From positions 8,757 to 72,756 of IMG/VR virus record IMGVR_UViG_3300046787_000345: DNA of 64,000 nucleotides; one strand, 5' to 3'. Position 1 is the first letter of the stretch; each line of letters starts with the position of its first letter. Origin of the DNA: a virus. Shown piece by piece: positions 1 through 19,682 of the stretch. The position numbers and the translations under genes are program-made. The notes below the pieces were generated by a model. The model was not told the DNA's origin and searched no databases. It was given only the letters and a program-made list of their open reading frames with translations.

Positions 1-171
1 AATTGCTTTATTTGCAGTTTCAACTGAATCTATTTCGTTTTGTAAAGAATCGATTTTTCGGTTATATGCTTCAACATCAGTACGGATACTATTGTTAGTA
101 AAGATATTATATCCAACTAAAACAATAAGAATGACCAGTATGATATTTTTAAAACTTAACAAATTTTTCAT
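1..171 (-). CDS. N-terminally membrane-anchored coiled-coil protein (5' part only; spanin-like architecture)
   Basis: Manual translation from ATG at 171: MKNLLSFKNIILVILIVLVGYNIFTNNSIRTDVEAYNRKIDSLQNEIDSVETANKAI..., runs off the window edge. Confidence 0.6.
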   Translation of the reverse strand, partial: MKNLLSFKNIILVILIVLVGYNIFTNNSIRTDVEAYNRKIDSLQNEIDSVETANKAI

Positions 172-2540: not shown

Positions 2541-3197
2541 TTATACTAATTTATTTTTAACTAATTGTTGAAACAAATATTCTGAAATTTTTGTATCTGA
2601 TGGGTAATGTACTCCACTTATTTCTCTGACTGTTCTTATATCTTTATATAAGTTATCCAACAAATTTGTTGCTTCTGGTTTTAGTTTTTTTAAGTGAAAA
2701 ATAATATTTAAAAAATCCAAAGTATGACCAGATGGATATGCTGCTGAGTTTGCATCAGTTGCTATGATTGGATATAATTCTGTACCATATTCTTTGGCCA
2801 ATTGATATGGTCTTGGTCTATTGAACACATCTTTTAAATAAAATAATACAGGGTCTAAATTACCCACCCAATCTAATATTTGTTCCTTAGAAACATCCAA
2901 CCCTAATTTTTTAGCAACCACAACAAAAAAATCGTAATGATGATGTTCCATAAGTTCACATAACTTTAAATCATCTTCATCTGCTTGGGTTGTTATTTTA
3001 GTAAGATACTCTAATTCTTTTTTTGTTTCATCAGATGAATTTGCTGGGAATGGGTGGTTTTCTAATATATCTTTTATAATGCCTAATTGAATTGCACGTT
3101 TTAAAACACCACCTTTATCTTTTTTTATTTTTTCGATTTGGTCTTTTCTACTATTTCCATATCGAATATCATCTAATATTTCGGAAAGTCTAATCAT
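2541..3197 (-). CDS. PAP2 / acid phosphatase family protein
   Basis: Motifs K...RPRP, YPSGH and R..SGVHYPSD. Confidence 0.85.
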   Translation of the reverse strand: MIRLSEILDDIRYGNSRKDQIEKIKKDKGGVLKRAIQLGIIKDILENHPFPANSSDETKKELEYLTKITTQADEDDLKLCELMEHHHYDFFVVVAKKLGLDVSKEQILDWVGNLDPVLFYLKDVFNRPRPYQLAKEYGTELYPIIATDANSAAYPSGHTLDFLNIIFHLKKLKPEATNLLDNLYKDIRTVREISGVHYPSDTKISEYLFQQLVKNKLV

Positions 3198-3916
3198 TAT
3201 TTTTCAAATACACCTTTTTTAACCATTCTTAATAAAATTCTAGAACATGCTATATCTAACGCTTTCTTAGTAGATGTACCAATTGTTGATTGATTAAATT
3301 TAACTTCATCTACTGTTGCATCTGAAAGGAATGATAATTCTCTCGTAGTTTTTGCTTCACCTAATCCAGATGCTGCAATAATTTCACCGGTCTCTGCGTT
3401 TGTAAATCTTACTTGTAAACCTAAACGGGTTACTACCATATTCTTAACACCATCTTTTAAATTTACCGTCTCATCTTCTGAAACAGAAAAATCGTATACT
3501 TCGATTTCAACAAAGTAATGTGCTAAACGAATTTTACCTCTACCATCTAATTTATCTTGTGATATACCTGATTGAGAAGCCTGAAATTGCTTTACCATTC
3601 GGTTTTTAATTTCAGTTTTATCTTCCGTAAATGTAAATCTATTAAGATTCTCCAAATATTCCATCGTGATGTTAGCCACACCCAAACCCACTTTCTTTTC
3701 TTTGAGTTCTGGATATTGCTCATAAACTTCATCACCAATACCACATTTAAGGATTTGAATCGGAATTTGCTTTCCCTCATAATCTAAAAATTGACTAATG
3801 TCTACTTTTGTTTCGAATGATGCTTTATAATTTTCTGTCTTTGTTGTTCCCACAGTTTGGGCAATGGCAACATTGCTTAGTAAAACACCAAGCAAGAATA
3901 CTAATAATTTTTTCAT
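3197..3916 (-). CDS. CsgG-family (curli transport/assembly-like) exported protein
   Basis: Signal peptide; RF..TED, A.YFV..EVYDF and LQVRFTNAETGEII.ASG pattern typical of the CsgG/FlgO/TolB-N fold. Confidence 0.7.
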   Translation of the reverse strand: MKKLLVFLLGVLLSNVAIAQTVGTTKTENYKASFETKVDISQFLDYEGKQIPIQILKCGIGDEVYEQYPELKEKKVGLGVANITMEYLENLNRFTFTEDKTEIKNRMVKQFQASQSGISQDKLDGRGKIRLAHYFVEIEVYDFSVSEDETVNLKDGVKNMVVTRLGLQVRFTNAETGEIIAASGLGEAKTTRELSFLSDATVDEVKFNQSTIGTSTKKALDIACSRILLRMVKKGVFEK

Positions 3917-3941
3917 ATACGTTTTTCATATTTTGTTCGTA

Positions 3942-3950
3942 TATAAATAT
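3942..3950 (-). promoter_or_regulatory. Class-2 promoter motif ATATTTATA
   Basis: Recurrent 9-mer, 25 nt upstream of ATG at 3916. Confidence 0.55.
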
Positions 3951-3979
3951 AAAAAAAGGGAAACTTTCGTCTCCCTTTT
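3951..3979 (-). terminator. Intrinsic terminator
   Basis: Minus strand GGGAGAC-GAAA-GTTTCCC followed by T7. Confidence 0.8.
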
Positions 3980-3983
3980 CAAA

Positions 3984-4238
3984 TTATCCTAATTCTTCAT
4001 CTTTTGGTTCTTCTTTTTTGTTGAATATCTTTCCAACTTCAGCTATACCAAAAGCTCCTAATGTTATATACATAAATGAATTATAAATAAATTCATTCAC
4101 TAACAACTCATTTCCCATATATCCTGTTACCAAATCGGTAACTGCGAATGCTGTCATTACTATAAATGATGCAAACCCTACGATTGTTTTCTCATTCAAA
4201 TCATTTGAATCTTTGAAAATATCAGTAAATTTAGCCAT
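3984..4238 (-). CDS. Small two-TM membrane protein (holin-like)
   Basis: Two hydrophobic segments and a charged C-terminus. Confidence 0.5.
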   Translation of the reverse strand: MAKFTDIFKDSNDLNEKTIVGFASFIVMTAFAVTDLVTGYMGNELLVNEFIYNSFMYITLGAFGIAEVGKIFNKKEEPKDEELG

Positions 4239-4284
4239 AGTCTTTTTTCCTTTTTTTAATTATTAAACTATGTAACCTTTATTA

Positions 4285-4893
4285 TTATCCTACTTGTTCA
4301 GCATCTTCATCTTTAATTTTTCCACATTTCAAACACTCTTCTTCACCATCTCCATCTAAATCTCCCCAAACGTGTTCACATTGTCTATGTGCGAAGTATT
4401 CATCGATTTTACCATCACCATCGAAATCTAAACCATCCATTACACCATCTCCATCTTCATCGATTTCAGTTCCCTTTTTTTCTTCTTTTGGTGCATCAAC
4501 GACTTGGTCGGTAACTTGGTCAGTAACTTGGTCGGTTGTTGGTAACACTAATGGTGTTACACTCATTGGAACTATTGGAGTATTTGGTATATCGGCTGTA
4601 TTTGATAATGATGTACCATCTTCCTCATCCATCTTTTGTACTAACATCTTATCCTTATCGGTATCACTAAACCAATAATCGATAATCTTACCATAAGAAC
4701 CAATAAAAGCTCCTAATAACAACAATAGAAGTTCTTTCCATTCTCCTGCTATTTCGTTTTTATTAATAATAGCAGCAAACATACCACCAATTATTAACAT
4801 AAATCCACCCAATACCAACGCAGTGATATACCATCTACGTTTCATCATATTACTCAATAGGTCTTTGAAACCACTCGGTGCTTGTTCTGCCAT
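4285..4893 (-). CDS. Two-TM membrane protein with acidic DxDGDG repeats and a Cys/His cluster
   Basis: TM helices; IDYWF; DEDGDG, DFDGDG, DLDGDG; CEH...CLKC. Confidence 0.6.
   Translation of the reverse strand: MAEQAPSGFKDLLSNMMKRRWYITALVLGGFMLIIGGMFAAIINKNEIAGEWKELLLLLLGAFIGSYGKIIDYWFSDTDKDKMLVQKMDEEDGTSLSNTADIPNTPIVPMSVTPLVLPTTDQVTDQVTDQVVDAPKEEKKGTEIDEDGDGVMDGLDFDGDGKIDEYFAHRQCEHVWGDLDGDGEEECLKCGKIKDEDAEQVG
4501..4537. repeat. 12-bp tandem repeat x3 encoding TDQV
   Basis: acttggtc(g/a)gta units seen in sequence. Confidence 0.8.
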
Positions 4894-4916
4894 ATTATTC
4901 TCCTTTATTTTTTATA

Positions 4917-5240
4917 CTACCACTTCGGTGCTTCTTCTTTAAACTCATCACCTTCTTTTTTCTTAGGTTTTGGTTGAGGTTGTGCCGGTTGAGCATTTCC
5001 ACCTACTGCCTTTTCTTTGATGATTATAGTCTTACCACCTGCTGATTGTTGTTGAGCCTGTTGGTTACTATTAGTGATGTTAATTACCGGTGCTGCTTGT
5101 TGTACCGGTGTTTCTTCTTTATCACCACCTGTTAATTGTGTAGTAACCCAAGTACCAACACCTAATGTGATAGTGCTCACTAATCCGATAATCATATTTT
5201 TGATTGAGCTACCTGTACTTTGTTCTTGTTCTTCTGCCAT
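4917..5240 (-). CDS. Single-TM membrane protein with Gln/Pro-rich tail
   Basis: ORF with one hydrophobic segment and upstream GGAG. Confidence 0.6.
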   Translation of the reverse strand: MAEEQEQSTGSSIKNMIIGLVSTITLGVGTWVTTQLTGGDKEETPVQQAAPVINITNSNQQAQQQSAGGKTIIIKEKAVGGNAQPAQPQPKPKKKEGDEFKEEAPKW

Positions 5241-5258
5241 TTGTTTTTCTCCGTTTTG

Positions 5259-5630
5259 TTATTGTATTTTGTTAAAATCTGTTATTCCTAATTGTCTACC
5301 ATTTGCATCATACAATCCTATTCTATATGCAGATGATGGTAATGCCGATGTATATACTTTAAGTACATTATCACCTGCAACTACATTCATAGTTTCTTTC
5401 GATACTACTTTATTTGCAATATCAAATATTCTTATTGTTACCGAACCTGCTGTTTCAGTTTTAACATTCATAGCAACTTCCGATGTTACAAATTGTGTTT
5501 GTAATTTAATACCAGTTGAACTTGTTATTTTAAGTTCTTCGGATACTGATTGTGGTGTTGGTAATATATCTTCTTTTGAACATCCTACTAGTAAAATAGT
5601 AAAGAATATCAATACAAATATTTTTTTCAT
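5259..5630 (-). CDS. Lipoprotein consisting of a stand-alone T9SS C-terminal sorting domain-like Ig fold
   Basis: Lipobox LLVGC; C-S-K-E-D; VTIRIFDIANKVV...G.N.L.V..S.LP..Y pattern. Confidence 0.6.
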   Translation of the reverse strand: MKKIFVLIFFTILLVGCSKEDILPTPQSVSEELKITSSTGIKLQTQFVTSEVAMNVKTETAGSVTIRIFDIANKVVSKETMNVVAGDNVLKVYTSALPSSAYRIGLYDANGRQLGITDFNKIQ

Positions 5631-5639
5631 TTTGTTCTC

Positions 5640-5981
5640 CTAATTGATTATTATCGTTGTTTTAGCTATTTCTTTTTTAGTAACATCTTCTAATAACAAA
5701 TATAAGTATTTAACCGATATCGATTTAGTGTAAATTTTCTTTACATTTTCACCATTTTGACCAATAAATCGTTCTCTACTGATTACTTGTCCACTTTCTT
5801 TATCAATTAAAGTTAAAGTGTATGTTCCTGCCGATGGTAAATCAAAGTATATAGATTGCCCGTTTGCTACCGAACTTTCTTTTACCTCAAATATTTTTTC
5901 AACGGGCATAGTTGGAGTTGGTAATTCAGGTTTAGTACATCCCACCAATAAAATTAATGATATCAATATTATTTTTTTCAT
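5640..5981 (-). CDS. Lipoprotein, paralog-like T9SS CTD/FlgD-Ig-like domain
   Basis: Lipobox LLVGC; YTLTLID..GQVI...G.N...IYT. Confidence 0.5.
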   Translation of the reverse strand: MKKIILISLILLVGCTKPELPTPTMPVEKIFEVKESSVANGQSIYFDLPSAGTYTLTLIDKESGQVISRERFIGQNGENVKKIYTKSISVKYLYLLLEDVTKKEIAKTTIIIN

Positions 5982-8275
5982 TAGTTTACCTTTACTTTTA
6001 ATTGTGTTCCACTTTTATTAACAGCATCTGTATTTGAAATTGATGTTAATCCCAATGTACCATTTAACCCTATCAATGGTAAGAATGTTATTTTATATTC
6101 AGTTGTTTTATCTAACGTAGTTGAACCATCGGTTATCAATGAACCCAATGTTATAGATGAACCTCTATCAGTTCCAAAATTGGTAGGTGTTCCCTTTGTA
6201 GTGAATTCTACCTTTTCAAAACTTAATGCGGTATTATCATAGTTTAAATTAAATTGAGTACCAACTAACTCTTGTTGTAATGGGTCTACTGAAATTGTTA
6301 CTATCAATTTACCACCAACATTTTCACTCATTAGGTATGCGTTGATTTGATTGGAAACTGATTGAGTTGATAAACTCATAGTTCTATATGAATTAGTAGC
6401 AACACTACTTTGGGTTTGTTGTGCCGAATGTGATAGATTTACATCTCCCACCCAAGTTACATTAACATTGTAAGTGTTATTCAACGTACCACTATTCAAA
6501 TTAAAAGGAAACAAACTTCTTGTTGAGTTAAATTGGGTGTTCCAATTAGATTTTGTTATCGCATCGTATTCGGATTTACTATAAAGTTTCATCAAATATG
6601 GTAATGCAGAATATTGTGTAAGTGGTGCAACACCTGTCAAATGTTGTAATAGTTTGTATGTATCCGTTTCATTAAATACACCATTACCATCTACATCCGC
6701 GTTCATATACTGAATACCATTTGTAAATTCTAATCCACTTTGGTTTCCAAATATACCACCATTTGATAATTCTTTAAATGCTAAATACACATCTGTTACA
6801 CTCACAATACTATTGTATAAAGTGTTTAGTTCCGTTTGGTTAGTATATGCTAATTCTATTCCATGTTGTTTAAATAATGTATTTGGTGTAAATGTATATT
6901 CGGCTCTAAATGCATACCATCCATCTTGCAATCGTATATTACTTTGAAATGAACTTGATGCCACCTTACTAGCTAAATTAATATTTCCAGGTACTAACCA
7001 TTGTTTCCACCATCCATTAAAATCCAAAGGTTGAATAGGTCCATCGTATATATCAAATAACTGTACTGATTTTATCTGATTTAAGTTTACACCCGTTCCA
7101 AAAAATTCTCTTTCATCAATTTGTAATCGATGTCCGTTTCTTGAAGTTTCATATGGATTTATAAGTGACCACTCTACTTCTCCTGGTGTTATAATAGCTC
7201 TAATTCCATCTGTTGTTTTTGTAGTATCTAAATCGTTTGTTATATCGACTTTACCCAAGCCACTTATTGCTCTCGATGTATTATTAGTTACCCCCCATAC
7301 ATTGTTTACGAAAGTATTTGCTTTTGCTGAAAATTTTGTTTCATCTATACTACTGCCAAAATCAAAATTAAATCTTGCAGTTAAAACATCTCCGTTTGTA
7401 TGTGTTACTGAATTTGTATAAAACTCCGTAAATGTTGCATCATCGGGATTAGTCCAAGTTCCATATTCAATTACATAAGGATTAAAAAAGTTATTAGGTA
7501 AATCATTCCATTGAGAACCATTCCACTTTGTTACAGCATAATCTTCATTACCACTATTGTTTGGTTCACCGGGTGCCCAGTTATTATATTGCCCAACTAT
7601 GTTTCCGGCAGTTTGTCCGTTTGATGTTTTTATTAGAGTTCCTGCTTCAGGTCCTGCATCGATTCTCCATTGACCTTCAACGGCTTCATCGGTTAATGCA
7701 AACCATATATTACTTTGTGGTACGTTATTAAAAATAAAAGCATCTTCATCTGCCGAAGTTATTGTTACTAAATATCCTTGCTGACCTTTGAATGTAGTGT
7801 TTAATGCAGCTGTTCTTGCACCTGTATATGAGTTTCCCGTTGATACCGGTCTATAAAAGTGTCCGTTTGTTCCGTTGTAAAAGAAACCCGTTGGGTTTAC
7901 AGTTGCTGCTACTGATAATACGATATTACCTCTTACTGAACCTGTGTTTACTTTTAACGATTGTAAGGCAGTATTGATATTAGACATCGTTCCGGTTACC
8001 ACTAAACGAGTTTTATTACCCGCTAATGTGAATCCACTTGCTGCGGTTAAACCTGTTGTTGTAGTTAGGTTAAATGTTGTACCAGATGGTGGATTTACTA
8101 GACTGATTGATGCTAATAAGGTCGCAGTAGAACCGAAACCATTTAAACTAAATCCACTAGCATCTTGTCCAGTTGTGGATGGTATAAACGATTTAGAGTC
8201 CGGAGCAGATACACTCTGTCCGAACCCTAATAATGATGTTAAAATAAATAAAAATGTAACTATTAAATTTTTCAT
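5981..8275 (-). CDS. Exported protein with C-type lectin, permuted dockerin-like and C-terminal cohesin-like domains
   Basis: Signal peptide (ATG 8275); GYLVTITS.E, W.PGEPNN..EDY..WND (C-type lectin); ADVDGNGVFNETD..LL ... GDVN; GTQFNLNYD (cohesin-like). Confidence 0.7.
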   Translation of the reverse strand: MKNLIVTFLFILTSLLGFGQSVSAPDSKSFIPSTTGQDASGFSLNGFGSTATLLASISLVNPPSGTTFNLTTTTGLTAASGFTLAGNKTRLVVTGTMSNINTALQSLKVNTGSVRGNIVLSVAATVNPTGFFYNGTNGHFYRPVSTGNSYTGARTAALNTTFKGQQGYLVTITSADEDAFIFNNVPQSNIWFALTDEAVEGQWRIDAGPEAGTLIKTSNGQTAGNIVGQYNNWAPGEPNNSGNEDYAVTKWNGSQWNDLPNNFFNPYVIEYGTWTNPDDATFTEFYTNSVTHTNGDVLTARFNFDFGSSIDETKFSAKANTFVNNVWGVTNNTSRAISGLGKVDITNDLDTTKTTDGIRAIITPGEVEWSLINPYETSRNGHRLQIDEREFFGTGVNLNQIKSVQLFDIYDGPIQPLDFNGWWKQWLVPGNINLASKVASSSFQSNIRLQDGWYAFRAEYTFTPNTLFKQHGIELAYTNQTELNTLYNSIVSVTDVYLAFKELSNGGIFGNQSGLEFTNGIQYMNADVDGNGVFNETDTYKLLQHLTGVAPLTQYSALPYLMKLYSKSEYDAITKSNWNTQFNSTRSLFPFNLNSGTLNNTYNVNVTWVGDVNLSHSAQQTQSSVATNSYRTMSLSTQSVSNQINAYLMSENVGGKLIVTISVDPLQQELVGTQFNLNYDNTALSFEKVEFTTKGTPTNFGTDRGSSITLGSLITDGSTTLDKTTEYKITFLPLIGLNGTLGLTSISNTDAVNKSGTQLKVKVN

Positions 8276-8276
8276 A

Positions 8277-9929
8277 TTATTCAACTATTAAGTCAATTTT
8301 ATTACCCTTTGAATCAACCGCATCAGAAACTACAAAGAAGAATAATCCTGCAGTATTTGTTAGAGGTGTTTTAGGAGTAAATATTAATTTATATGGAGTT
8401 CCAACTTTAATTCTAGCAGTTTTCAATTGGTCAATAGAACCAAATGTTAATCTACCATCTTTATGAGTTGAAAAGTTAGTTATAGTACTTCCTGCATCAA
8501 ATATCACATTATCCAAAGTTAATTTAGATTCATCATAATTCATAATAACTTGTAAACCTGCCAATTCTGCTTTTGTTAAAGTAGTAGTCAATACAACTTT
8601 ACCACCTTCTAATGTAGATGTAATACCCAATTTCGCTTGTTCTACTGATAAAGTTCTATAACTCATCGAAACATTACTCATAGAACTAATTGAGTTTGTA
8701 GTTTTATTGTTTACTGCATTTGTAAATTGTCCTGCTGTTATTCTACTAGCAATTACCGCTGGGTCTGATGAATGTGACCAGTTCAAATCACCACCCCATG
8801 CAAATACTGCGTATACTTCTTTTATAGGGGTATCAATCAATACTCTATTTTTTACAACTCCATCTAACCAACTTTGATTTAATAAACCACTATACCATCT
8901 TACTGATGTTGAAGTTGGTGTTGGAATCATTGCGTTTGAATCCATATTCTGTCCCATTACATGTGCAAATAATGCGTATGAATCTCCTTCACCAAATGGA
9001 TTTTGATTATTAGTTACTTTACCAACTCTTCTTTCTAACGCAGGTAATGTAAAGAAGTTTGCAGTTCCACTAATATCAGTTTGTGAGTGTCCTAAGAATG
9101 CTTTATAAGCATCGGATACTGTTACAATATTGTTCATCCAAGTCTTTTGCATTGCAGGACCAACGAATACACCAACTGAATCACCAACTTTTACTTGTGT
9201 TGTGAAAAGTGCTTCACCGCTACCGTCTAATGGTAACTGTGCTATTGGCTGTCTACTCCAATCTATATCACCACTACCATCAGTTTTAAGATGCATTAAT
9301 TGAACATTGTGGTCGGTTATAGTGTATCCTTGTGGGAATAGAACTTTTACTTTAAATTGAGATGTATTACCCACAACACCATTTAATGATGACCAACCAC
9401 CACCATATATAGTTCCAACATTCGCACCTGTCGTATCAGTACCAGTTGCTAAATCTATTTTGAATATATTATTGTAAGTATTTTTATCTTTTAGAATATA
9501 TTTTTGAGTAGCAATTAAACCACTAATAGATGCATCTGCTCTTTGGACAGTTAATTGACCAACATTCCAATCGGAATTTACAGCATATCCCCACGGACTT
9601 AATCCATATTGAACATCTAAATCGTTATCACTCGCACCACCATTTGGTGTGAACTTATAATTTGTCCAACCTGTATAGAATGTTTGGGCAGATGAACCTT
9701 GATTAAACGTAGTAGATACATAAGTTAGTGCCTTATTATTAAATTGGTATCTAAACCAAAGGTAACGAGCATTTTTAATCACTTGTCCTTTTGTTAGATT
9801 ATATCTTACAGTAATTGTGTCACCTACTTTTAAACCAGTAGCAGGTGTTAAAGATTGACTGATTGTCAATTGTCCGAATGATGATAGTGATATTAAGAAT
9901 ATCCCCAAAAATACGATTAGTTTTTTCAT
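8277..9929 (-). CDS. Exported protein with degenerate dockerin-like and cohesin-like domains
   Basis: Signal peptide; VTVSDAYKAF...GDLNWSHS and C-terminal GLQVIMNYD...LTFGS, paralogous to the downstream gene. Confidence 0.6.
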   Translation of the reverse strand: MKKLIVFLGIFLISLSSFGQLTISQSLTPATGLKVGDTITVRYNLTKGQVIKNARYLWFRYQFNNKALTYVSTTFNQGSSAQTFYTGWTNYKFTPNGGASDNDLDVQYGLSPWGYAVNSDWNVGQLTVQRADASISGLIATQKYILKDKNTYNNIFKIDLATGTDTTGANVGTIYGGGWSSLNGVVGNTSQFKVKVLFPQGYTITDHNVQLMHLKTDGSGDIDWSRQPIAQLPLDGSGEALFTTQVKVGDSVGVFVGPAMQKTWMNNIVTVSDAYKAFLGHSQTDISGTANFFTLPALERRVGKVTNNQNPFGEGDSYALFAHVMGQNMDSNAMIPTPTSTSVRWYSGLLNQSWLDGVVKNRVLIDTPIKEVYAVFAWGGDLNWSHSSDPAVIASRITAGQFTNAVNNKTTNSISSMSNVSMSYRTLSVEQAKLGITSTLEGGKVVLTTTLTKAELAGLQVIMNYDESKLTLDNVIFDAGSTITNFSTHKDGRLTFGSIDQLKTARIKVGTPYKLIFTPKTPLTNTAGLFFFVVSDAVDSKGNKIDLIVE

Positions 9930-10429
9930 TTTGTTAAGTCCTTTATGATATTTTCACAAACTTTTTTTAATGCATTACTTGTTGATTGTTGATTAAATTT
10001 ACCATCAGTTCCTACAATTAAAGTTGAAGTTGATATTTCTTCACTTTCACCTTTTTGTACGGTCTTCTTAATACGTTTATCACCATCCCACAATTCTGCA
10101 GATGCAATAATTTGAGTTGTAGCAACACCTTTATGGAACACACTAATATTTGTTCCAACGTTTGCTACATCAAAAAACAATAACCTAACTTTAATTTTTA
10201 ATTTCGAGTCTTTTACTAATGGATATCCTAAATCCATTAAACTTTCTTCTATGATGTTTTTCACACCAAATGCAAGATTTTTATTTCCTGCTAAATTTCC
10301 TAATTTAATATCATTCACAACCTCACCTACACTAATTTGTGGTAGTTCGGTTTGTGCTTTTAATGATGTTGTTGTAAGTGCAAAAAATGCCACTAATAAA
10401 ATTGTAGTGAATTTTAAACCAATTTTCAT
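9926..10429 (-). CDS. Exported CsgG/FlgO-like alpha-beta protein
   Basis: Signal peptide; C-terminal KFNQQSTSNALKKVC resembles KFNQSTIGTSTKKALDIAC of 3197..3916. Confidence 0.5.
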   Translation of the reverse strand: MKIGLKFTTILLVAFFALTTTSLKAQTELPQISVGEVVNDIKLGNLAGNKNLAFGVKNIIEESLMDLGYPLVKDSKLKIKVRLLFFDVANVGTNISVFHKGVATTQIIASAELWDGDKRIKKTVQKGESEEISTSTLIVGTDGKFNQQSTSNALKKVCENIIKDLTK

Positions 10430-10508
10430 GTTACCTCCTAAGTAAGTTTAGGCGTAACCTTCATTAAAATAACGTGATTTACGAAACGAATTTGTGACGA
10501 GTGTCAGT

Positions 10509-10517
10509 AATAAGTAT
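10509..10517 (-). promoter_or_regulatory. Class-2 promoter motif ATACTTATT
   Basis: Lies after a terminator, ~80 nt upstream of the envelope cluster. Confidence 0.5.
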
Positions 10518-10528
10518 CAAATAGACAT

Positions 10529-10556
10529 AAAAAAACCCCACTATTAAGTGAGGTTT
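10529..10556 (-). terminator. Intrinsic terminator ending the glycosylation island
   Basis: Minus strand AAACCTCACT-TAAT-AGTGGGGTTT plus T-tract. Confidence 0.75.
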
Positions 10557-11437
10557 CCCAATTCTTCATTAAAATTTTCTTCTGCTATTTTCTTAAATTC
10601 CTCTCGTCTATCTAATATACTTATATTACTGATGTAATGAGTGTTGTTTCTATACCTATAATTCTCGCAAACTACTAAGTTTTTAATCTTATATTGTTGA
10701 ATGGTTATATCAGTTGTTTTCATTAATTTCTCAGCACCCCACATTACAAACGTATCCTCATATCCGTAGTGACTGAAAGAATTTGGTATTCCTACTCTTC
10801 GTAGTAAATCTCCACTTAAACAAGTGAACCAACCTCCAGCGAATTTAAATCGTGGTTGGTTTGGAAATGAGTTACTAACTGGTTCTAAACCAATTTCACC
10901 TTTGATACCCGAATCTAAATATGGGTCATTAGTTTTATGATAATTTAACGATTTGGTAATATAATTTTCATTTACTAAGCAATCCCAAGTTGAATCCCAT
11001 ATTCTAACAATTTCAGGAGTTAAAATTGAATAGTTTGTTTTTTCTGAAACTATCGGTAATATATTTTCGAAATATACCAATGTTCTTTCATCAAATATAA
11101 TATCAGTATCTAGCCAAATATAAAAATCAGCAGTATCTTGATGTATTAAAGTATGTTTTCGTTGAGATACACATCCTTTGATATTATCATCTATTTGAAA
11201 ATATTTAGCACACCAATCAACTCCATTTGATAATTTTAACATTTTATCTATGAAAAATTGTTTTGGTAATGATGATTGTTTCCAATCTACCATATCATCT
11301 GCTAAACACATTGTTACATCCAATACCCATTCATTAGTTTTATTAAGATAATACGATGCTTTACGAAGTTGGGTTAGTGTATTTTCCAACTCATCGATTT
11401 CGTGCGGTAATGCAAATATTGATATTACTATTCTCAT
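10544..11437 (-). CDS. GT-A fold glycosyltransferase-like protein
   Basis: WLDTDIIF (DxD), GGWF, YGYED motifs. Confidence 0.65.
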   Translation of the reverse strand: MRIVISIFALPHEIDELENTLTQLRKASYYLNKTNEWVLDVTMCLADDMVDWKQSSLPKQFFIDKMLKLSNGVDWCAKYFQIDDNIKGCVSQRKHTLIHQDTADFYIWLDTDIIFDERTLVYFENILPIVSEKTNYSILTPEIVRIWDSTWDCLVNENYITKSLNYHKTNDPYLDSGIKGEIGLEPVSNSFPNQPRFKFAGGWFTCLSGDLLRRVGIPNSFSHYGYEDTFVMWGAEKLMKTTDITIQQYKIKNLVVCENYRYRNNTHYISNISILDRREEFKKIAEENFNEELGNLT

Positions 11438-12231
11438 TTATATAACTCTATTATTTCTTGTTTGATTTTAGGGTCTCTATCGTACTGATGAACTATTACA
11501 AATTCATCACCATTTTGATTGTAGAACTTACCATCTCTATAAATAGGAGTTGGTTCTAAAATTGGTAATTCATCTTTTTTACACCAAACTGTTCCTAATT
11601 GTGTTACAAATCCTTTTTCTTGATTAACAAGTTGTGTAGATGTTCTAAATTGTTCTAAATTTATAAGAACATTGAATGCTGCCTGGTCAGATAGTTGGTC
11701 TGGATTAGCAGTTGTCTTACTCCATCTATAAATTTGAATAAATAAATCTCTAATAGATTCCAAATCACCTACAATTGTTCCAGCACAATAACTAATTTTT
11801 TCACTCAATCCTAACTGCCATTCCATAGGAAATGATGAACCAGTATTTACTACAGCCCACGGGTCATCTTTAAGTTTAACACATTCTGAAAAAGCAAATA
11901 ATTTAGTAAATGAACTATTATCTTCAATCCAACCAATTGGATTTTTTTGAAATATAACATCTTTTACATCGGTCCAAATAATCCAATCAGTTTTATACTG
12001 ATTAAGAATTACATACATATCTCTAAATCGTTGTAAAATTATATGTTCTTGTAATTCAGATTGGAATAATATCCAACCTTTCTTTGTTAGATATTCAATA
12101 ACATCGGTAGATACATCGTAAATCAACATTACCTTATCACCATTGAACCCACTTTTCTCAACCGATTCTATATATGGTCTGATATCATCTACTCCGTATT
12201 TGGTTATACAACCTACTATTGTGTATTTCAT
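11434..12231 (-). CDS. GT-A fold glycosyltransferase-like protein
   Basis: WTDVKDVIFQ, DQAAFN, VHQYDR. Confidence 0.65.
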   Translation of the reverse strand: MKYTIVGCITKYGVDDIRPYIESVEKSGFNGDKVMLIYDVSTDVIEYLTKKGWILFQSELQEHIILQRFRDMYVILNQYKTDWIIWTDVKDVIFQKNPIGWIEDNSSFTKLFAFSECVKLKDDPWAVVNTGSSFPMEWQLGLSEKISYCAGTIVGDLESIRDLFIQIYRWSKTTANPDQLSDQAAFNVLINLEQFRTSTQLVNQEKGFVTQLGTVWCKKDELPILEPTPIYRDGKFYNQNGDEFVIVHQYDRDPKIKQEIIELYK

Positions 12232-12237
12232 TATAAC

Positions 12238-12921
12238 TTATTTTCTTGCATATAACATACCAGTTGTACCGGCACCATCAAAGTCAATTTTAACCTCAAA
12301 TCCTGCTGATTGTATTTTTGATACCAATCCCACAACTTTTAAATCAGTTGGTGGGTTATGAAATTCTATTGCAATTTTATCTATTTTAGTACTCAATGTA
12401 TCAATATCAATTGCTTCAAATATTTCGTATTCAGCACCTTCACAATCTACTTTAAAATAATTTATTTTGTCATGCGGTTTTAAAACATCATTTATATTAT
12501 AAACTTGAACTTCATATGATGATTTAATTGTATTAGGACTCATTTCAGAATGTAATGAGGACCTACCAGGAAAATTGTTTTCGTAAAAGGTAACGATACC
12601 ATTCTTATTCGATACTGCCGCCTGATTTAGTTCAACATTCGGTATATTTAATTTTTTAAAAAACCCAATTAATTTTGGGTTAGGTTCATAACCAACTATT
12701 TTAGATGGATTGTATTGTAATGCATCTAAACTAAATAATCCAAAATTTACTCCAATATCAATTACAACATCACCTTCTTCGATTGATACGAAATCATTGT
12801 TGTAGACATTTAAATTTATAATTTCATTTAATATGTAATTAATATCCATTTTATCGGTATCCGATAATTCAGATTGAATCGTTTCTAAGTATTTATCGAA
12901 ATGTTCTCTATTATTTTTCAT
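12238..12921 (-). CDS. FkbM-family methyltransferase
   Basis: VIDIGVNFG, YEPN, KVDCEGAE. Confidence 0.9.
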   Translation of the reverse strand: MKNNREHFDKYLETIQSELSDTDKMDINYILNEIINLNVYNNDFVSIEEGDVVIDIGVNFGLFSLDALQYNPSKIVGYEPNPKLIGFFKKLNIPNVELNQAAVSNKNGIVTFYENNFPGRSSLHSEMSPNTIKSSYEVQVYNINDVLKPHDKINYFKVDCEGAEYEIFEAIDIDTLSTKIDKIAIEFHNPPTDLKVVGLVSKIQSAGFEVKIDFDGAGTTGMLYARK

Positions 12922-13531
12922 AGTACCAGCATTGGTTATTTGTAATTACATTTAAATTATTTTTATCAGCATATGTTTTAACGGCACGTTCAACATCACC
13001 ATTTGGCCAAAGATAATCATCACCACATAAAACAGCGTTTGGCCAGTATTTTCCAGCGGTTTCGATATCATATAATACATGCTCATAATCATGATGTGCA
13101 TCTATATAAATCAAATCAAATGGTATATCTAATTTACTAAGTAAATCCAATCCTTCATTTGTTTTTTTTCTAATAGGAGTTAAACGATTGCGATATTCCC
13201 AATTATTTACCAAAAAAATTTCCCATAAATTAGATATTTCATCATACAATTCCATTGCAGCTTCTCTATCAAATGAACTTTGTATATGGTCTTCTATATC
13301 AGTACTCCAATGGTCTACACAAACTAAATGGGCATTGGGTGAGTTTTTTAAAATAAAATTAGTAGAACCAATTCCAGTCCAACTACCCATTTCTAAAATA
13401 AAAGATGGGTTTATTTTTTTAATTAATTTTCGTAATACCTCAGCGTTTTGTTCACAAAACCAATTGTGTGAACTTGGTATTATTGTCGGTTTTTCAGTTG
13501 GCCACTGAAATAAGTTATTAATTTTATCCAT
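12911..13531 (-). CDS. Class I SAM methyltransferase (Methyltransf_24-like)
   Basis: ILEMGSWTG, FDLIYIDAHHDY, CGDDY. Confidence 0.85.
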   Translation of the reverse strand: MDKINNLFQWPTEKPTIIPSSHNWFCEQNAEVLRKLIKKINPSFILEMGSWTGIGSTNFILKNSPNAHLVCVDHWSTDIEDHIQSSFDREAAMELYDEISNLWEIFLVNNWEYRNRLTPIRKKTNEGLDLLSKLDIPFDLIYIDAHHDYEHVLYDIETAGKYWPNAVLCGDDYLWPNGDVERAVKTYADKNNLNVITNNQCWYYEK

Positions 13532-14256
13532 TATAATTTATTTTTGTAATCTAAATATTTTTTATAATCAGTTTGGTTATAAAATTCTTTCCATTGGTGG
13601 TCGAATACTGCGTTTGACCTAAATATTCCACTTGCAGTTTCAGATAACCCATCCCATTCTGAATAACTATATCCATTTAAATGTAATAATGCTGAAATTA
13701 GAACATCCCCATGTCTTGTTATTCGTCTATCCAAACTATTTAAGTAATCCGTAGTATATTCATCTTTAATTATAGATTCAATTGATTTAACCATAGCATC
13801 CATTTTAACAATACTACCACCGCACATATTGTATTTAATATCATGTGGATTTACATTTGGATATTTGTGTAATATCAATAAACAAAAGTTGTCATGAAAT
13901 TGATGACCTACTACACCACCAGAATCTTTTTTTGGAAATACTATGTTATTGTGTAATGTATTTACATCTTCTTCTAAAAACAATAACCATTCATTTGGAA
14001 ATGTTTTACAAGTTAATAATATTCGTTCTAAATAATTATACCAATTATCATCACCCAATCCTTTCGGTGATATATTAATATCCCAATGTGTATATTTTAG
14101 GTTGAACTTATTTTGAAATTCAGCAAAATTATAACCGTTATCTCCATGTAAATATATAGGTGTATTTGGAAAATTTAAACGAAATCTTCGGATACATTCC
14201 TCTACTGCTATTTGATTATTATGAACCTGAAGATGCGTGGTTATATTATTTACCAT
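13531..14256 (-). CDS. Putative glycosyltransferase-like protein
   Basis: WLLFLEEDV, CGGSI; lies within the GT cluster; likely start ATG 14256. Confidence 0.5.
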   Translation of the reverse strand: MVNNITTHLQVHNNQIAVEECIRRFRLNFPNTPIYLHGDNGYNFAEFQNKFNLKYTHWDINISPKGLGDDNWYNYLERILLTCKTFPNEWLLFLEEDVNTLHNNIVFPKKDSGGVVGHQFHDNFCLLILHKYPNVNPHDIKYNMCGGSIVKMDAMVKSIESIIKDEYTTDYLNSLDRRITRHGDVLISALLHLNGYSYSEWDGLSETASGIFRSNAVFDHQWKEFYNQTDYKKYLDYKNKL

Positions 14257-15001
14257 ATTTTTGCCAGTCGTTGTGTTTGAATAACCCCTCACCATGTGCT
14301 ACACCAAAGTTTTGTCTTGGCCACCAGTAAGCAATCTTTCTTTCTAAATCGATACCCTCACCCATAAATGGTTCTATTACATTTAAGTAAAATTCTTTTT
14401 TGTATAAACAAGGATTATTAGTCCAATTACCATATCTTGAACTTGTTAAAAAGTATTCACCAAATTGACCTATTTGTTCAGGAAATTCTTTTTTAGGGTC
14501 ACACCAATGTACTGAATCTAAAAGATGCGGTGATTGTATTTCATGCCAATCATCATAGTAAGTAAGTTCCTTACCTTTATATTGAAATGAGAAATGTGGG
14601 TGACCGGGTTCGTTTCTGTGTCTATATCTTACTACATCAACACTTCCACCTAATAACTCTAATCCAGATAATAATCTATCATAAGTAGTTGCTCTATCTT
14701 CGATTAGATTCCAATCATGCTCTAAAATTAAAACGTGCTCTGATTGTGCTGTTTCGGTTAAACGTTTAAATGCTTTTCCAATACCAATATTTTTCTGTAA
14801 TCCAATACAATCAATTCCAAAATGAGATGCAATCTGATAATCTTGTTCGGTTACTTCTTGAAAAAGAATAGTAACATCGTTTACCATATCCAACAACCCA
14901 TTTTGGTAATAAGTTGTCAACGTGTCTACCAGTACTTGACCGGAATGCCATGCAAGTATTCCAATTGAAATTGGTAGTTTATTTGTAGTATTGTTTGACA
15001 T
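14246..15001 (-). CDS. GT2-like glycosyltransferase
   Basis: ISIGIL, NIGIG, ILEHDW, WTNNP. Confidence 0.6.
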   Translation of the reverse strand: MSNNTTNKLPISIGILAWHSGQVLVDTLTTYYQNGLLDMVNDVTILFQEVTEQDYQIASHFGIDCIGLQKNIGIGKAFKRLTETAQSEHVLILEHDWNLIEDRATTYDRLLSGLELLGGSVDVVRYRHRNEPGHPHFSFQYKGKELTYYDDWHEIQSPHLLDSVHWCDPKKEFPEQIGQFGEYFLTSSRYGNWTNNPCLYKKEFYLNVIEPFMGEGIDLERKIAYWWPRQNFGVAHGEGLFKHNDWQKYGK

Positions 15002-15731
15002 GATTCCAAATTTGTTTTATGATATTTTTTTTATTCGTATGACCACCCATTTTACTACCAGTAAAATGCCAGATGTATGAATCATTTATAAATTCACCAT
15101 CATCGTATTTACTCATCACCATATTGTTCCACTCCCACCCTAAGAATTTTATATCTTTTGGTAGATACCCATCGTCATCTACATACAAATCATACATAAT
15201 AATGTTTACAGGTGTTTGTTCACATGCATTAGGACCAGTTGGACCTACTTTATAGAATGATGACCAATACTCATGATATTTTGGTATTTCGTTTCTAATT
15301 GCTAAATACTTTTCTTTTGATAAAAATACAAAACCAGTATTACAATAGTTGACTGGTGGAGTTTTTATATTTGGGTTTAAATCTACCCATTGGTTTAAAT
15401 GATATTTACCGACTTGTGGACCTCCGGCATCTCTAATCATACACATCGTATAATCCTTAGCAACTTCAAAGATGTTAGGTGCATCCCAACGAATCATAGT
15501 ATCGGAATCAATTAGAATAACTTTATCGTAATCTAATTCAACTAATCTTTCATCATACCACGGCTCAAAACATCCATTACCCCACGGCTCAAATTCATAT
15601 TCTTTTTCTTCGTTTGCTATGATTAATTGAATATCCCATTTATTACAATAATATTTCCAACTTTCAATACCTTCAGGCCATTCTTTATCAAATCCATTAT
15701 ATGCAGGAATGAATATTATATTTTTACTCAT
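14979..15731 (-). CDS. GT-A glycosyltransferase (GT8/GT34-like)
   Basis: ILIDSDTMI, NTGF, EQT..N, WN, HFTG. Confidence 0.75.
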   Translation of the reverse strand: MSKNIIFIPAYNGFDKEWPEGIESWKYYCNKWDIQLIIANEEKEYEFEPWGNGCFEPWYDERLVELDYDKVILIDSDTMIRWDAPNIFEVAKDYTMCMIRDAGGPQVGKYHLNQWVDLNPNIKTPPVNYCNTGFVFLSKEKYLAIRNEIPKYHEYWSSFYKVGPTGPNACEQTPVNIIMYDLYVDDDGYLPKDIKFLGWEWNNMVMSKYDDGEFINDSYIWHFTGSKMGGHTNKKNIIKQIWNHVKQYYK

Positions 15732-16576
15732 AAACTTTGTATATATTCTTTTAATCTATCTTTGGGTTTCCAATTTAATCTGATTAGAGTATCATCATTT
15801 TCCCTAAGTGTTTTACGATAATTTCCATGTTGGTCTGGAATATGTACTTTATCTACTCCAAATTTATTTTTAAACAATTCATATACTTCATTTATAGAAT
15901 AGTTTGTTCCAGTTCCCAATTCCCAAGCATCTTCATGTGATTCAGAACTCATTCCTATTTTATATAAACCATCTACTATATCTTCAACGTGAGTAAAATC
16001 TCTACGTTGTTCACCATCACCCACAATTGTAATTGGTTCATTATCACGTGTTTGTCTTCTCCATATTCCAATCACTGCTGCCCAATCACCATCTACAATT
16101 TCATTTGGTCCATATACATTATAAAATCTTGCAATCTCTGCATTTAGTCCATATACTTTTTTATACATTTTAAGAATTTCTTCTCCAATGTGTTTATAAC
16201 ATGCGTAAGGTGATTGATATGGATTGTGCCAACGAGATGATGAACCTGCGTAAATTAATTTTACATTATTATGTCTTGCAAATTCACAAACTGCTTCAGT
16301 TCCCCTACTATTTACTCTAAAAGTTTCAACCGGATTTTCAAACGATGGTTGGATTCTACTTAATGCTGCTAAGTGGTAAACTATATCAAAGGAATCCCCT
16401 TCCCAATATTCAAGTTGTTCTATGTCTCCACTTATGTAATTACATCCTTCTATATGATTTTCTCTTAAACCACTATCGTAATTATCTAATGAATGAACTG
16501 AATGACCTTCAGTTAGTAATCGTTTTATAAGATTTGTACCTACAAACCCTGCACCACCTGTAACTAATATTTTCAT
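15728..16576 (-). CDS. NAD-dependent sugar-nucleotide epimerase/dehydratase
   Basis: VTGGAGFVG, YxxxK (YACYK), RFYNVYGP, RDFTHVED. Confidence 0.92.
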   Translation of the reverse strand: MKILVTGGAGFVGTNLIKRLLTEGHSVHSLDNYDSGLRENHIEGCNYISGDIEQLEYWEGDSFDIVYHLAALSRIQPSFENPVETFRVNSRGTEAVCEFARHNNVKLIYAGSSSRWHNPYQSPYACYKHIGEEILKMYKKVYGLNAEIARFYNVYGPNEIVDGDWAAVIGIWRRQTRDNEPITIVGDGEQRRDFTHVEDIVDGLYKIGMSSESHEDAWELGTGTNYSINEVYELFKNKFGVDKVHIPDQHGNYRKTLRENDDTLIRLNWKPKDRLKEYIQSL

Positions 16577-16577
16577 A

Positions 16578-17210
16578 CTATTTTTGTAATTCAGAATAAT
16601 AATTATTTTGTTTCTCCTGTCTTACTATATCTTTATGGTGATATAATGAGAATTGTTCTTCTGCAGGGAAATTTGAGAATGTGTTATAACCAGTAATTTG
16701 TTCGTGAACTTTATTCATCCAAACTACATCATCGGTATTCTTATAAATTCTTGTTTGATAATCTGGATAATTTACCCATCCTTTTTCGTTCACCTTCCAT
16801 CCCCATTTTTGAATATGGGAATCAGTTAAACCATTGACTGTATTTACGCGTGGTACAAATACAATATCTACACTATTGGTATCTAATACTTCACCTAAAA
16901 TTTCAATTAGGTACTCATGTGGAATTTCATCTGCATCGATTTGAAAGATATAATCTTTACTACAATGTGATTTTAAATTATTCTTAAATGATGCGAAATC
17001 ATTATCTAATGAAAATGATATAACTTTATATTCATTATGTAATAGATTCATTACATTTAGATATTCTTTTACTTCTTGAGTTGCAGAAGATGAATCATAT
17101 TGAATTACGATTTCATCTTCTTCTCTAATATGTAATTGTAAAAAGTTTAATAATGTAGTTATTTCTTCTAACTCATTACAAACTGTAATTGCGTAACTGA
17201 TACTAGCCAT
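16578..17210 (-). CDS. GT2 glycosyltransferase
   Basis: FQIDADE, PDYQTR, VHE motifs. Confidence 0.85.
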   Translation of the reverse strand: MASISYAITVCNELEEITTLLNFLQLHIREEDEIVIQYDSSSATQEVKEYLNVMNLLHNEYKVISFSLDNDFASFKNNLKSHCSKDYIFQIDADEIPHEYLIEILGEVLDTNSVDIVFVPRVNTVNGLTDSHIQKWGWKVNEKGWVNYPDYQTRIYKNTDDVVWMNKVHEQITGYNTFSNFPAEEQFSLYHHKDIVRQEKQNNYYSELQK

Positions 17211-17724
17211 CGTTTTCGTTTATTTCTTTTTTAATAACTTCTCTTCTATTGGAAGGAGTAGTTCCTTCCTTAAATATATCTTGTAAAAACCCATCTTCAA
17301 ATCTAATTTCCCATGCGTTTTGTATTTTATCGATAAAATATGTTCTATAATTATCTAACATAGGTGAATAAATTTTTGGATTATTTTTTACATATCCCTC
17401 AAATAATTGTCTACCATCTCTTGGGAATAATTTTAGTATTTCACTAAGTGGTTGAGTTTTTTCAATAGGTTTAGCTTTGTTTCGTAACTTATTTAAAAAA
17501 GTTATAAAATTATCAGGAAGTATCTGATTTAATAATAGACAATGTATCTTATTATTGAGTTTACCAATAACAAAAACATAACGAGATTCTAATCCCACTT
17601 TAGTTGGAGGAACGCCATCTTTGTATGTTGAAATACGATAAATGTTACAAGGTAAAATTTGATTCTTACCAACTCTAATTTCAGGAGTTAAAATTTGTTT
17701 GTATTGTTGGGTAAATAATCTCAT
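17203..17724 (-). CDS. Hypothetical protein
   Basis: 173-aa ORF translationally coupled to its neighbours. Confidence 0.6.
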   Translation of the reverse strand: MRLFTQQYKQILTPEIRVGKNQILPCNIYRISTYKDGVPPTKVGLESRYVFVIGKLNNKIHCLLLNQILPDNFITFLNKLRNKAKPIEKTQPLSEILKLFPRDGRQLFEGYVKNNPKIYSPMLDNYRTYFIDKIQNAWEIRFEDGFLQDIFKEGTTPSNRREVIKKEINENDG

Positions 17725-18989: not shown

Positions 18990-19254
18990 TGCGTAATCTT
19001 TTTCGTTGTTCTTCTTGCTTGATACATCTTTCGATTGACATCTCAACCAATTTTGTAATATTTTGTAATGTGGTTGGTTGGTGTGGTGAATTAAACATTT
19101 CAAACTTTACGTTTTCAACTTCACTATCACCCAACACAAATATATAATAATCATCTGCTAGACCAGGAGTTTTATATATACTCTCTCTAGCTCTTTCTAT
19201 TCTTTCTTGTTCCCACATACCGGGAAGTCTTATTATGAATATAGGTTTACTCAT
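18982..19254 (-). CDS. Hypothetical protein
   Basis: ORF; likely start MSKPIFII at 19254. Confidence 0.55.
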   Translation of the reverse strand: MSKPIFIIRLPGMWEQERIERARESIYKTPGLADDYYIFVLGDSEVENVKFEMFNSPHQPTTLQNITKLVEMSIERCIKQEEQRKRLRNE

Positions 19255-19255
19255 A

Positions 19256-19681: not shown

Positions 19682-19682
19682 T

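Follow-up and report, generated by a model that had tools for sequence, protein, structure and literature searches.

Why would a bacteriophage encode what looks like a bacterial secretion tag, without cargo and with a lipid anchor in its place? The question is raised by two adjoining small genes, here called P1 and P2, in a 64,000-nucleotide stretch of viral DNA (hereafter, the window) that comprises bases 8757-72756 of IMG/VR record IMGVR_UViG_3300046787_000345. Type IX secretion system (T9SS) sorting domains, which are C-terminal domains (CTDs), have been known only as tags at the C-terminus of cellular cargo proteins, while here such a tag and a lipid anchor stand alone as a conserved gene pair, and no description of phage-encoded stand-alone or lipidated CTDs was found in open-access papers or bioRxiv. 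A first-pass annotation, made from the sequence alone, had taken the two products for lipidated CTD look-alikes that either jam or hijack the host T9SS as decoys or serve as in-trans adaptors for adjacent cargo. We consider here what the two proteins are, where they would be placed, and what they might do; the pair suggests that the phage may interfere with or exploit the host T9SS.

A conserved tandem pair of lipoprotein genes

P1 and P2 are minus-strand lipoprotein genes named by coordinate, P1 being first in the window and second in transcription (Table 1). They are real tandem paralogous genes: the two products align by BLASTP at 25% identity over 104 residues (E 5e-7), and hhalign joins their orthologue sets at 98.1% (E 8.4e-14). 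The architecture is the same in both and consists of a signal peptide with a lipobox (LLVGC), a linker of ~20 residues, and a single seven-stranded β-sandwich that extends to the C-terminus. Both open reading frames (ORFs), both lipoboxes, and the pattern that the first-pass annotation had read from their ~80-residue domains were recovered, the pattern as IFDIANKVVSKETMNVVAGDNVLKVYT in P1 and as LIDKESGQVISRERFIGQNGENVKKIYT in P2.

Exactly two family members, with P2 directly upstream of P1, were found in every one of 80 related viral loci, which had been retrieved with P1 as the query. Relatives at E ≤ 0.01 in a collection of 5.8 billion proteins numbered 3663 for P1 and 1457 for P2, and the atlas clusters nearest to P1 were 100% viral. 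No genuine fused (cargo-bearing) form of the P1 family was seen, the two longer matches being a LacI chimera on a 1.6-kb contig and a garbled tail. Nor did a scan of genome contigs with P1 give a close cellular homologue, as its two loci matched in the signal peptide only (residues 1-27 and 1-21), and no ~120-residue cellular lipoprotein of the P1/P2 family was seen among the genomes searched. Five more small frames from Bacteroidota genomes comprised two unrelated lipoproteins, matched through the signal peptide only, and otherwise incomplete frames; no lipidated stand-alone CTD was among them.

The domain is homologous to type A sorting domains

The P1/P2 domain is homologous to the type A CTDs of the T9SS and belongs, by homology and by fold, to the type A CTD/DUF3244 superfamily. 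In library scans, P1 scored 20.3 bits with DUF3244 (cut-off 25), 17 with TIGR04183 (cut-off 23), 16.9 with Por_Secre_tail (PF18962, cut-off 27), and 15.9 with FlgD_ig (cut-off 27), and P2 gave no match at E ≤ 1 in Pfam or at E ≤ 10 in NCBIfam. The hidden Markov model (HMM) check named in the first-pass annotation, with TIGR04183 and Por_Secre_tail, thereby gave likeness below the cut-offs in P1 and no match in P2. The curated DUF3244 cut-off (PF11589) was likewise reached by neither protein, and the DUF3244 model also matches true CTDs at 21-25 bits, so the DUF3244 score of P1 is no mark of a separate origin. Because they fall below the cut-offs and have no passenger, we do not class P1 and P2 as T9SS substrates.

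The homology was drawn from comparisons of the whole family. A phmmer search with P1 against 1.84 billion cluster representatives gave 77 matches at E ≤ 0.001, mostly P1- and P2-type lipoproteins of 113-128 residues; seven were long proteins, five of which have Por_Secre_tail over the cut-off, and in one of these five, of 591 residues, that match is C-terminal (residues 502-587). Across 46 aligned family representatives, at E ≤ 0.01, DUF3244 was found in 21 and Por_Secre_tail in 15. As a reference for true CTDs we used 30 type A CTDs from one Flavobacterium metagenome-assembled genome (MAG), where 48 matches exceeded the cut-off. Aligned with these by hhalign, the family domain reached 90.3% (E 1.5e-6, 73 of 82 columns), compared with 0.3-0.5% for reversed-alignment controls, with P2 tied to the CTDs through P1 alone (at the 98.1% given above). 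An HMM built from the 30 true CTDs and run over 4613 ORFs of at least 50 residues, from the window and the 80 loci, picked out P1 orthologues only (24 of 81 at E ≤ 10, 10 of them at E ≤ 0.01), with no P2 and no other ORF. In the opposite direction, the phage-family profile matched 60 of the 201 Bacteroidota genomes that were sampled (best E 7.8e-11), and all 12 inspected matches end 2-12 residues before the stop of frames 279-1917 residues long, which bear the PNP, D-x-G-(K/R)-x-V, and G-x-Y motifs and are genuine cargo CTDs. A PDB sequence search with the family profile returned nine matches (E 0.41-0.7), none meaningful, and Por_Secre_tail exceeded its cut-off in none of three whole related phage genomes (287-324 kb).

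Other small CTD-like proteins came to light during these searches. A Flavobacterium MAG (L094, G001:C2, ~37 kb) encodes a cellular stand-alone CTD of ~107 residues (Por_Secre_tail 63 bits) with a signal peptidase I (SPI) type signal peptide exposing Gln, a short linker, and no lipidation, and cargo-less CTDs thus exist in cells. A complete 287-kb relative of the phage (G042) encodes, at L154 1453-1767 on the minus strand, a secreted protein of SPI type, 104 residues long, that matches Por_Secre_tail below threshold (21 bits), ~25 kb from the P2-P1 pair of that phage and with no counterpart at E ≤ 1 in the record of the window.

Predicted fold and sorting-domain motifs

AlphaFold models of both proteins were confident (predicted local distance difference test, pLDDT, 93.5 for P1 and 89.8 for P2) and have seven strands each, in a compact 3+4 sandwich at the extreme C-terminus, with the last strand ending at residue 121 of 123 in P1 and 112 of 113 in P2. 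When the P1 model was compared by VIA-align with 48,161 chains, the top matches were the CTD of mirolase (Z 10.6, root-mean-square deviation 1.9 over 77 residues) and that of PorU (Z 10.4, 2.1 over 86 residues), followed in lower rows by the translocon-bound CTD of NucA (Z 9.5), three DUF3244 structures (Z 8.0-8.7), and the CTD of PorZ (Z 8.3). For P2, the best Z was 8.1, and the mirolase CTD (Z 7.7) was tied with unrelated sandwiches. The CTD likeness claimed at first pass is true homology, and the fold proved not to be an unrelated one.

In CTDs of Porphyromonas, a Gly where strand 4 begins and a last-strand Lys are reported to be functionally relevant (PMC11285876), the Lys also according to PMC10994853. 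In the register given by the hhalign and HMM alignments, the Gly position would be occupied by G64 in P2 (D-K-E-S-G-Q-V) and by N73 in P1 (D-I-A-N-K-V), and the family is mixed. A Lys near the end, K121 of P1 (in the invariant C-terminus GITDFNK), is at least 95% conserved and kept in all 60 tallied lipobox-bearing distinct orthologues, although hhalign puts it one position pattern later than the CTD Lys, so that the two may not be equivalent; in P2, K107 is conserved as K-T.

Lipoprotein signals and predicted placement

The signal peptides of P1 and P2 are short, basic, and hydrophobic. Cys17 of P1 is invariant among the 46 family representatives, Cys15 of P2 is likewise invariant, and a lipobox was recognisable in 60 of 62 distinct P1 orthologues. 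The optimal lipoprotein export signal of Capnocytophaga is C-X-K-(D/E)2-X (PMC5080379), which P1 equals exactly (C-S-K-E-D-I), bearing out the earlier reading of its C-S-K-E-D as the Bacteroidota surface-export signal, and which P2 (C-T-K-P-E-L) does not meet. The strict motif occurs in 32 of 60 distinct lipobox-bearing orthologues of P1 and in 1 of 49 of P2. Because the motif is present in P1 and absent from P2, P1 is predicted to be flipped to the cell surface, and P2 perhaps to be left on the periplasmic face.

A jumbo phage, very likely of Bacteroidota

The record has 72,756 bases and is estimated to be 40% complete; the long ORFs of the window all lie on one strand, and its GC content is ~32%. 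PHROG matches in the window include a family B DNA polymerase, a clamp loader, a DnaB-like helicase, a UvsX-like recombinase, a ribonucleotide reductase, GroEL, and several glycosyltransferases. Complete related phages are 287-324 kb long (97-100% complete, with direct terminal repeats in one), which makes the record a fragment of a jumbo phage, and relatives of P1 and P2 sit on contigs of up to ~340 kb.

A simple scan of the window found 11 signal-like N-termini, namely eight of SPI type, the two lipoproteins, and one false positive, and in all eight SPI-type peptides a small residue and then Gln stand at the predicted cleavage site. Such exposure of an N-terminal Gln after cleavage (the Q-rule) is given as specific to Bacteroidetes (PMC5837995). 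Owing to these Q-rule peptides, the P1 export motif, and the CTD homology, the host is very likely a member of the Bacteroidota. GroEL, which matches Proteobacteria and phages of Bacteroides, Flavobacterium, and Cellulophaga equally, at ~60%, does not decide the host. A cultured-phage database held no DNA match for window positions 3000-12000 and, by tblastn, no match for P1, P2, or n550, a neighbouring gene described below.

Close relatives of the locus occur in freshwater samples: freshwater metatranscriptome contigs from three libraries of three studies, 85-99% alike, cover relatives of P1 and of the nearby genes n107, n202, n550, and n167 (window 3900-10600). Since these contigs are from relatives and may derive from DNA, they bear on neither transcription nor operon structure, and no meaning attaches to stretches that they leave uncovered. 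The lineage as a whole is one of abundant, widespread freshwater jumbo phages, very likely of Bacteroidota, with thousands of database relatives.

A lipid-tethered pseudo-substrate of the T9SS?

What, then, might such proteins do? The explanation that we favour, tentatively and with a probability of about 0.35, is that P1 and P2 are lipid-tethered CTD pseudo-substrates that would dock on PorV and SprA of the host. A CTD might have been taken over from Bacteroidota and joined to a lipoprotein signal peptide in the place of cargo. Once exported by Sec, lipidated, and transported by Lol, the heads would be held at the outer membrane on their ~20-residue linkers, where a CTD-shaped head could enter the CTD-recognition site of the host, formed by PorV loops and the SprA cavity, and would remain stuck there because its lipid tether prevents release. 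T9SS export and gliding might then stall, which would shut out other phages if these need T9SS-dependent surface proteins, or else the CTD-less lectin/cohesin-like proteins encoded next to the pair might be held at the translocon; P1, with its export motif, and P2, without one, may work from opposite sides of the outer membrane. That the outcome is one of two specific ones, namely that the T9SS and gliding are switched off by trapped tethered CTDs or that CTDs acting in trans export the lectin/cohesin-like proteins and anchor them to the surface, seems to us rather unlikely; if it were so, the pair would be the first effector encoded by a phage to be built from a secretion signal.

Several published observations make such docking conceivable. 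In translocon structures, the type A CTD motifs specify the fold and not the contacts, and the pocket of PorV/SprA is plastic and for the most part hydrophobic (PMC10994853), so that a CTD-shaped head is a plausible ligand; PorV recognises all type A CTDs (PMC12618676). The CTD of PorA activates PorXY by binding PorY (PMC12152298) and so shows that a CTD can be a ligand in its own right; taken together, these observations make a tethered CTD head a plausible pseudo-substrate. The association of T9SS and gliding with phage susceptibility, named at first pass, is in line with papers that link gliding and T9SS mutations to phage resistance in Flavobacterium. Should the heads engage PorV/SprA, nature would have supplied a genetically encoded agent that inhibits or hijacks type IX secretion and gliding, and with it a handle on CTD recognition, and they would open a new phage-host conflict where gliding and T9SS mutations are already tied to phage resistance.

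Docking was predicted between the P1 domain (residues 36-123) and the PorV of a Flavobacterium MAG (residues 20-389, 29-row alignment) with custom alignments, a PorV complex having been proposed as a check in the first-pass annotation. The score was 0.40 (runs 0.48, 0.40, and 0.01) against 0.00 for the best of three controls, a verdict of "weak support" for that domain and that stand-in partner; at least 69% of contacts are common to the runs, and the partner pLDDT is at least 76. The docking mark is reached by 58 of 80 solved complexes and by 2 of 110 mismatched pairs, and it was reached with a score of 0.60 or less by 7 of the 80 solved complexes and by both passing mismatches. As CTD-PorV complexes have already been solved (e.g., the NucA substrate-bound translocon, 8glk), the pass may reflect likeness only.

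A range of points weighs against the pseudo-substrate. A docking pass of this kind belongs to a weak class in which, by the tool's own account, errors outnumber correct calls if the guess had not been likely at the outset, and the Flavobacterium PorV may not be that of the host; the DNA polymerase has its nearest cultured relative (51% identity) in a phage of the cyanobacterium Microcystis, which is not decisive for the host. As to the domain, both proteins lie below the curated CTD cut-offs (PF18962 and TIGR04183), their single orthologue sets align with true CTDs at 21.9% (P1, E 9.7e-4) and 2.4% (P2, E 0.019) by hhalign, and the N-terminal PNP motif of true CTDs is not present in the family. 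Complement and macroglobulin (MG) domains tie with CTDs at Z ~10 for P1, and Foldseek against the PDB listed generic immunoglobulin (Ig), fibronectin type III, and MG folds only, with no CTD entry among the best 50 and a DUF3244 structure (4g5a) at rank 43, the CTD matches having come from VIA-align only; the fold alone hence does not single out CTDs, and it is the sequence links that do. CTD-like domains are also found as internal repeats in large proteins (P0310 and P0317), and DUF3244 turned up in a control search of Bacteroides thetaiotaomicron, which is not known to have a T9SS, so that fold and secretion need not go together. The export signal of P1 implies a surface route independent of the T9SS, and the number of lipoproteins tracks that of the cohesin-like genes beside them, 2:2 here and 1:1 in a distant lineage.

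Relation to known proteins

In architecture, the closest known proteins are DUF3244 proteins and PorA; in lifestyle, they are phage exclusion lipoproteins. Llp of phage T5, Cor, and the outer-membrane spanins (o-spanins) are, like P1 and P2 as predicted, small phage lipoproteins that act at the outer membrane, but the match is by signal peptide only, and the comparisons made show no relation in the folded domain. With type A CTDs, P1 and P2 share the seven-stranded Ig-like sandwich at the extreme C-terminus and the elements D-x-x-G-(K/R)-x-V (its Gly kept in P2 and many members, by the alignment register), G-x-N, L-x-x-G/S-x-Y, and, putatively, the last-strand Lys; they differ in having no cargo, a signal peptidase II rather than SPI signal peptide, no PNP motif, and scores below cut-offs, and in being phage-encoded as a tandem pair. 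DUF3244 proteins (PF11589; BT_1867, BT_3571, and BVU_0276; PDB 4g5a, 3sd2, and 3d33) are of the same size, consist of one sandwich to the C-terminus, and give P1 its best single Pfam match, although that match is below the cut-off and the model does not separate DUF3244 from true CTDs. PorA of Porphyromonas gingivalis is also small, has its CTD as the functional part, was found bound to PorV, and signals via PorY (PMC12152298); unlike the phage proteins, it is cargo of a cellular T9SS, bears an SPI signal peptide, and is attached to anionic lipopolysaccharide (A-LPS).

An eight-gene unit of exported and membrane proteins

P2 and P1 are the fourth and fifth genes of a tightly packed unit that runs n167, n550, n767, P2, P1, n107, n202, n84 and encodes exported or membrane proteins throughout (Table 1). 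The gene order is kept across the 80 loci, with n239 in 77 of them.

Table 1 Features of the P1/P2 locus, in window coordinates
Feature	Coordinates	Strand	Support or remark
Terminator-like hairpin upstream of unit	10530..10559	-	consensus scan only
n167, secreted, signal peptide ends KAQ, first gene of unit	9926..10429	-	67/80 loci
n550, secreted paralogue of n767 C-terminal region, cohesin-like lead	8277..9929	-	77/80 loci
n767, secreted, signal peptide ends FGQ, C-type lectin and C-terminal dockerin-like/cohesin-like region	5981..8275	-	77/80 loci
P2, 113-residue lipoprotein precursor	5640..5981	-	ORF; ATG 5979-5981
P2 signal peptide, lipobox LVGC	5937..5981	-	Cys15 at 5937-5939; start MKKIILISLILLVGC-TKPE
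P2 β-sandwich domain, residues 28-113	5643..5900	-	diverged paralogue of P1 domain
P1, 123-residue lipoprotein precursor	5259..5630	-	ORF; stop codon 5259-5261
P1 signal peptide, lipobox LVGC	5580..5630	-	Cys17 at 5580-5582; start MKKIFVLIFFTILLVGC-SKED
P1 residues +2 to +5 (S-K-E-D), export-signal match	5568..5579	-	read from sequence
P1 β-sandwich domain, residues 37-123	5262..5522	-	homologous to T9SS type A CTD/DUF3244
n107, small protein, one N-terminal hydrophobic segment, directly 3' of P1	4917..5240	-	78/80 loci
n202, membrane protein, acidic DGDG-rich tail	4285..4893	-	74/80 loci
n84, small membrane protein, charged C-terminus, last gene of unit	3984..4238	-	39/80 loci
Terminator-like hairpin downstream of unit	3953..3980	-	consensus scan only

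The two genes upstream of the pair had been described at first pass as dockerin-cohesin proteins without a CTD. The latter part holds, as neither Pfam nor the true-CTD HMM found a CTD in n767 or n550, and the former holds in part. For n767 (767 residues), Lectin_C was over its cut-off at 30 bits, and PDB C-type lectins were matched at E 3.6e-5, while Dockerin_1 stayed sub-threshold at 14.1 against 22.9 bits; Pfam gave no Cohesin match in either protein, and a PDB sequence search with n550 found nothing. The n550 protein shares ~300 C-terminal residues with n767 (27% identity, E 1e-18), and in a language-model look-up of its residues 400-550 the nearest viral clusters were 15-29% PF00963 Cohesin (score 0.92-0.94), a lead, from that model only, that the shared C-terminal region may be cohesin-like. 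Among the smaller products, the hydrophobic segment of n107 was read from the sequence and lies below the hydropathy threshold used, and of two apparent segments in n84 one exceeds it.

In n202, residues 46-93, made up of the second hydrophobic segment together with IDYWFSDTDKDKMLVQKMDEEDG, show conservation of at least 95% over 58 distinct orthologues, and its acidic tail combines DGDG calcium-loop-like repeats with a conserved C-x-H...C-x-x-C.

A distant lineage of four loci (L174-L177) has a P1-like protein at 29-33% identity and, in all four, a single cohesin-like gene and after it a single gene for a CTD-like lipoprotein, the start of which overlaps the preceding stop. Beside the copy numbers noted above, this is consistent with a one-to-one partnership in which the neighbours are the partners. 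After the single CTD-like lipoprotein of this lineage come a 159-residue coiled-coil lipoprotein with a faint TSP_3 calcium-repeat match (L175 8375-8854, plus strand) and an 85-residue transmembrane (TM) protein, with an Amidase_2 gene 4 kb downstream.

Alternative explanations

If the neighbours are the partners, the T9SS need not be involved at all: each lipoprotein might bind one co-encoded lectin/cohesin-like protein (P2 pairing with n767 and P1 with n550, or vice versa) and tether it to the outer membrane, the CTD fold serving as a small binding domain and the module decorating the envelope of the infected cell. We regard this as possible but doubtful. It accords with the constant adjacency of n767 and n550 (77 of 80 loci) to P2-P1 (80 of 80), with the one-base overlap between the P2 start codon and the TAA stop of n767 (TAATG), with the paralogy of n550 and n767 alongside that of P2 and P1, with the 4 of 4 distant loci just described, and with the exported or membrane nature of all eight genes between the terminator-like hairpins; if true, the phage builds its own surface complex on the host. 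It leaves unexplained, however, the persistent CTD likeness of the domain, and the known partners of cohesins are dockerins, not Ig-like domains. The pseudo-substrate and such a T9SS-independent anchor are not mutually exclusive, and the copy-number tracking favours the partner or adaptor idea of the first-pass annotation at least as much as it does jamming.

The surface placement predicted for P1, through its lipobox and exact export motif, would also suit a protein that covers an outer-membrane receptor and blocks further phages or lysis-released progeny, in the manner of T5 Llp or Cor, and phages are known to use small lipoproteins for exclusion. Faint PHROG matches to Cor (phrog_1119; E 0.008 for P1 and 0.0095 for P2) point the same way, but they span the signal peptide only (residues 1-26 and 1-24), P2 is without the export motif (in all but the 1 of 49 orthologues), and no receptor-binding gene was identified adjoining P2-P1, which makes receptor masking improbable in our view. 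Less probable still is a part in lysis, with P1 or P2 as the o-spanin-like outer-membrane partner of an inner-membrane protein. The unit does lie near lysis genes (the same record has a 129-residue ORF with TM segment and coiled coil and a PG_binding_1 plus Glyco_hydro_19 ORF, and in the distant lineage the Amidase_2 gene is close to the module), n84 is small and its tail is charged, and P1 is directly followed by the small TM protein n107. Yet the lipoprotein genes precede the TM gene instead of following it, the PHROG spanin match is confined to residues 1-19 of the signal peptide, the P1 export signal would lead to the wrong membrane face, and o-spanins are short and largely unstructured, unlike the well-folded seven-stranded sandwiches of P1 and P2 (pLDDT 90-94). 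Very improbable, finally, is a tethered CTD that imitates PorA and rewires PorXY-SigP control of T9SS genes via PorY: PorA continues to signal when it is kept at the inner membrane (PMC12152298), but such signalling is known only in Porphyromonas gingivalis, and P1 and P2 are predicted at the outer membrane, not the inner.

Identities as Cor/Llp or spanin by sequence were rejected, the PHROG matches being confined to signal peptides, and P1 and P2 do not fall in the o-spanin class, having a confident fold and genes upstream of the small TM gene.

Other genes of the record

Outward from window positions 1-171, the same record encodes a 129-residue coiled-coil protein with an N-terminal TM segment that is inner-membrane-spanin-like (L178 8538-8927, minus strand), overlapped by a 136-residue SPI-type ORF (L178 8249-8659), and, ~6 kb further on, an endolysin-like protein with PG_binding_1 and Glyco_hydro_19 (L178 1581-2429). 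Within the window, n218 (2541-3197, minus strand) is a soluble-looking PAP2-type phosphatase at 22.5 bits, below the cut-off, with RP, PSGH, and H-x-x-x-D residues visible; no signal peptide was detected in n218, which stands among genes for exported proteins.

Directly upstream of the unit (window 10544-21077, minus strand) lie genes for glycosyltransferases of families 2 (GT2) and 8 (GT8), two larger glycosyltransferases, a nucleotide-sugar epimerase, and two methyltransferases, for which DNA or the cell surface is a candidate target. Farther along the minus strand, positions 26799-30074 encode a 1091-residue outer-membrane β-barrel protein (OMP_b-brl_4, 161 bits, with an N-terminal CarboxypepD_reg) that has a Q-rule signal peptide (FFGFSQ) and no PHROG family match, and positions 58426-59067 encode a secreted DNA/RNA non-specific endonuclease (Endonuclease_NS, 130 bits), likewise with a Q-rule signal peptide (LGLKAQ).

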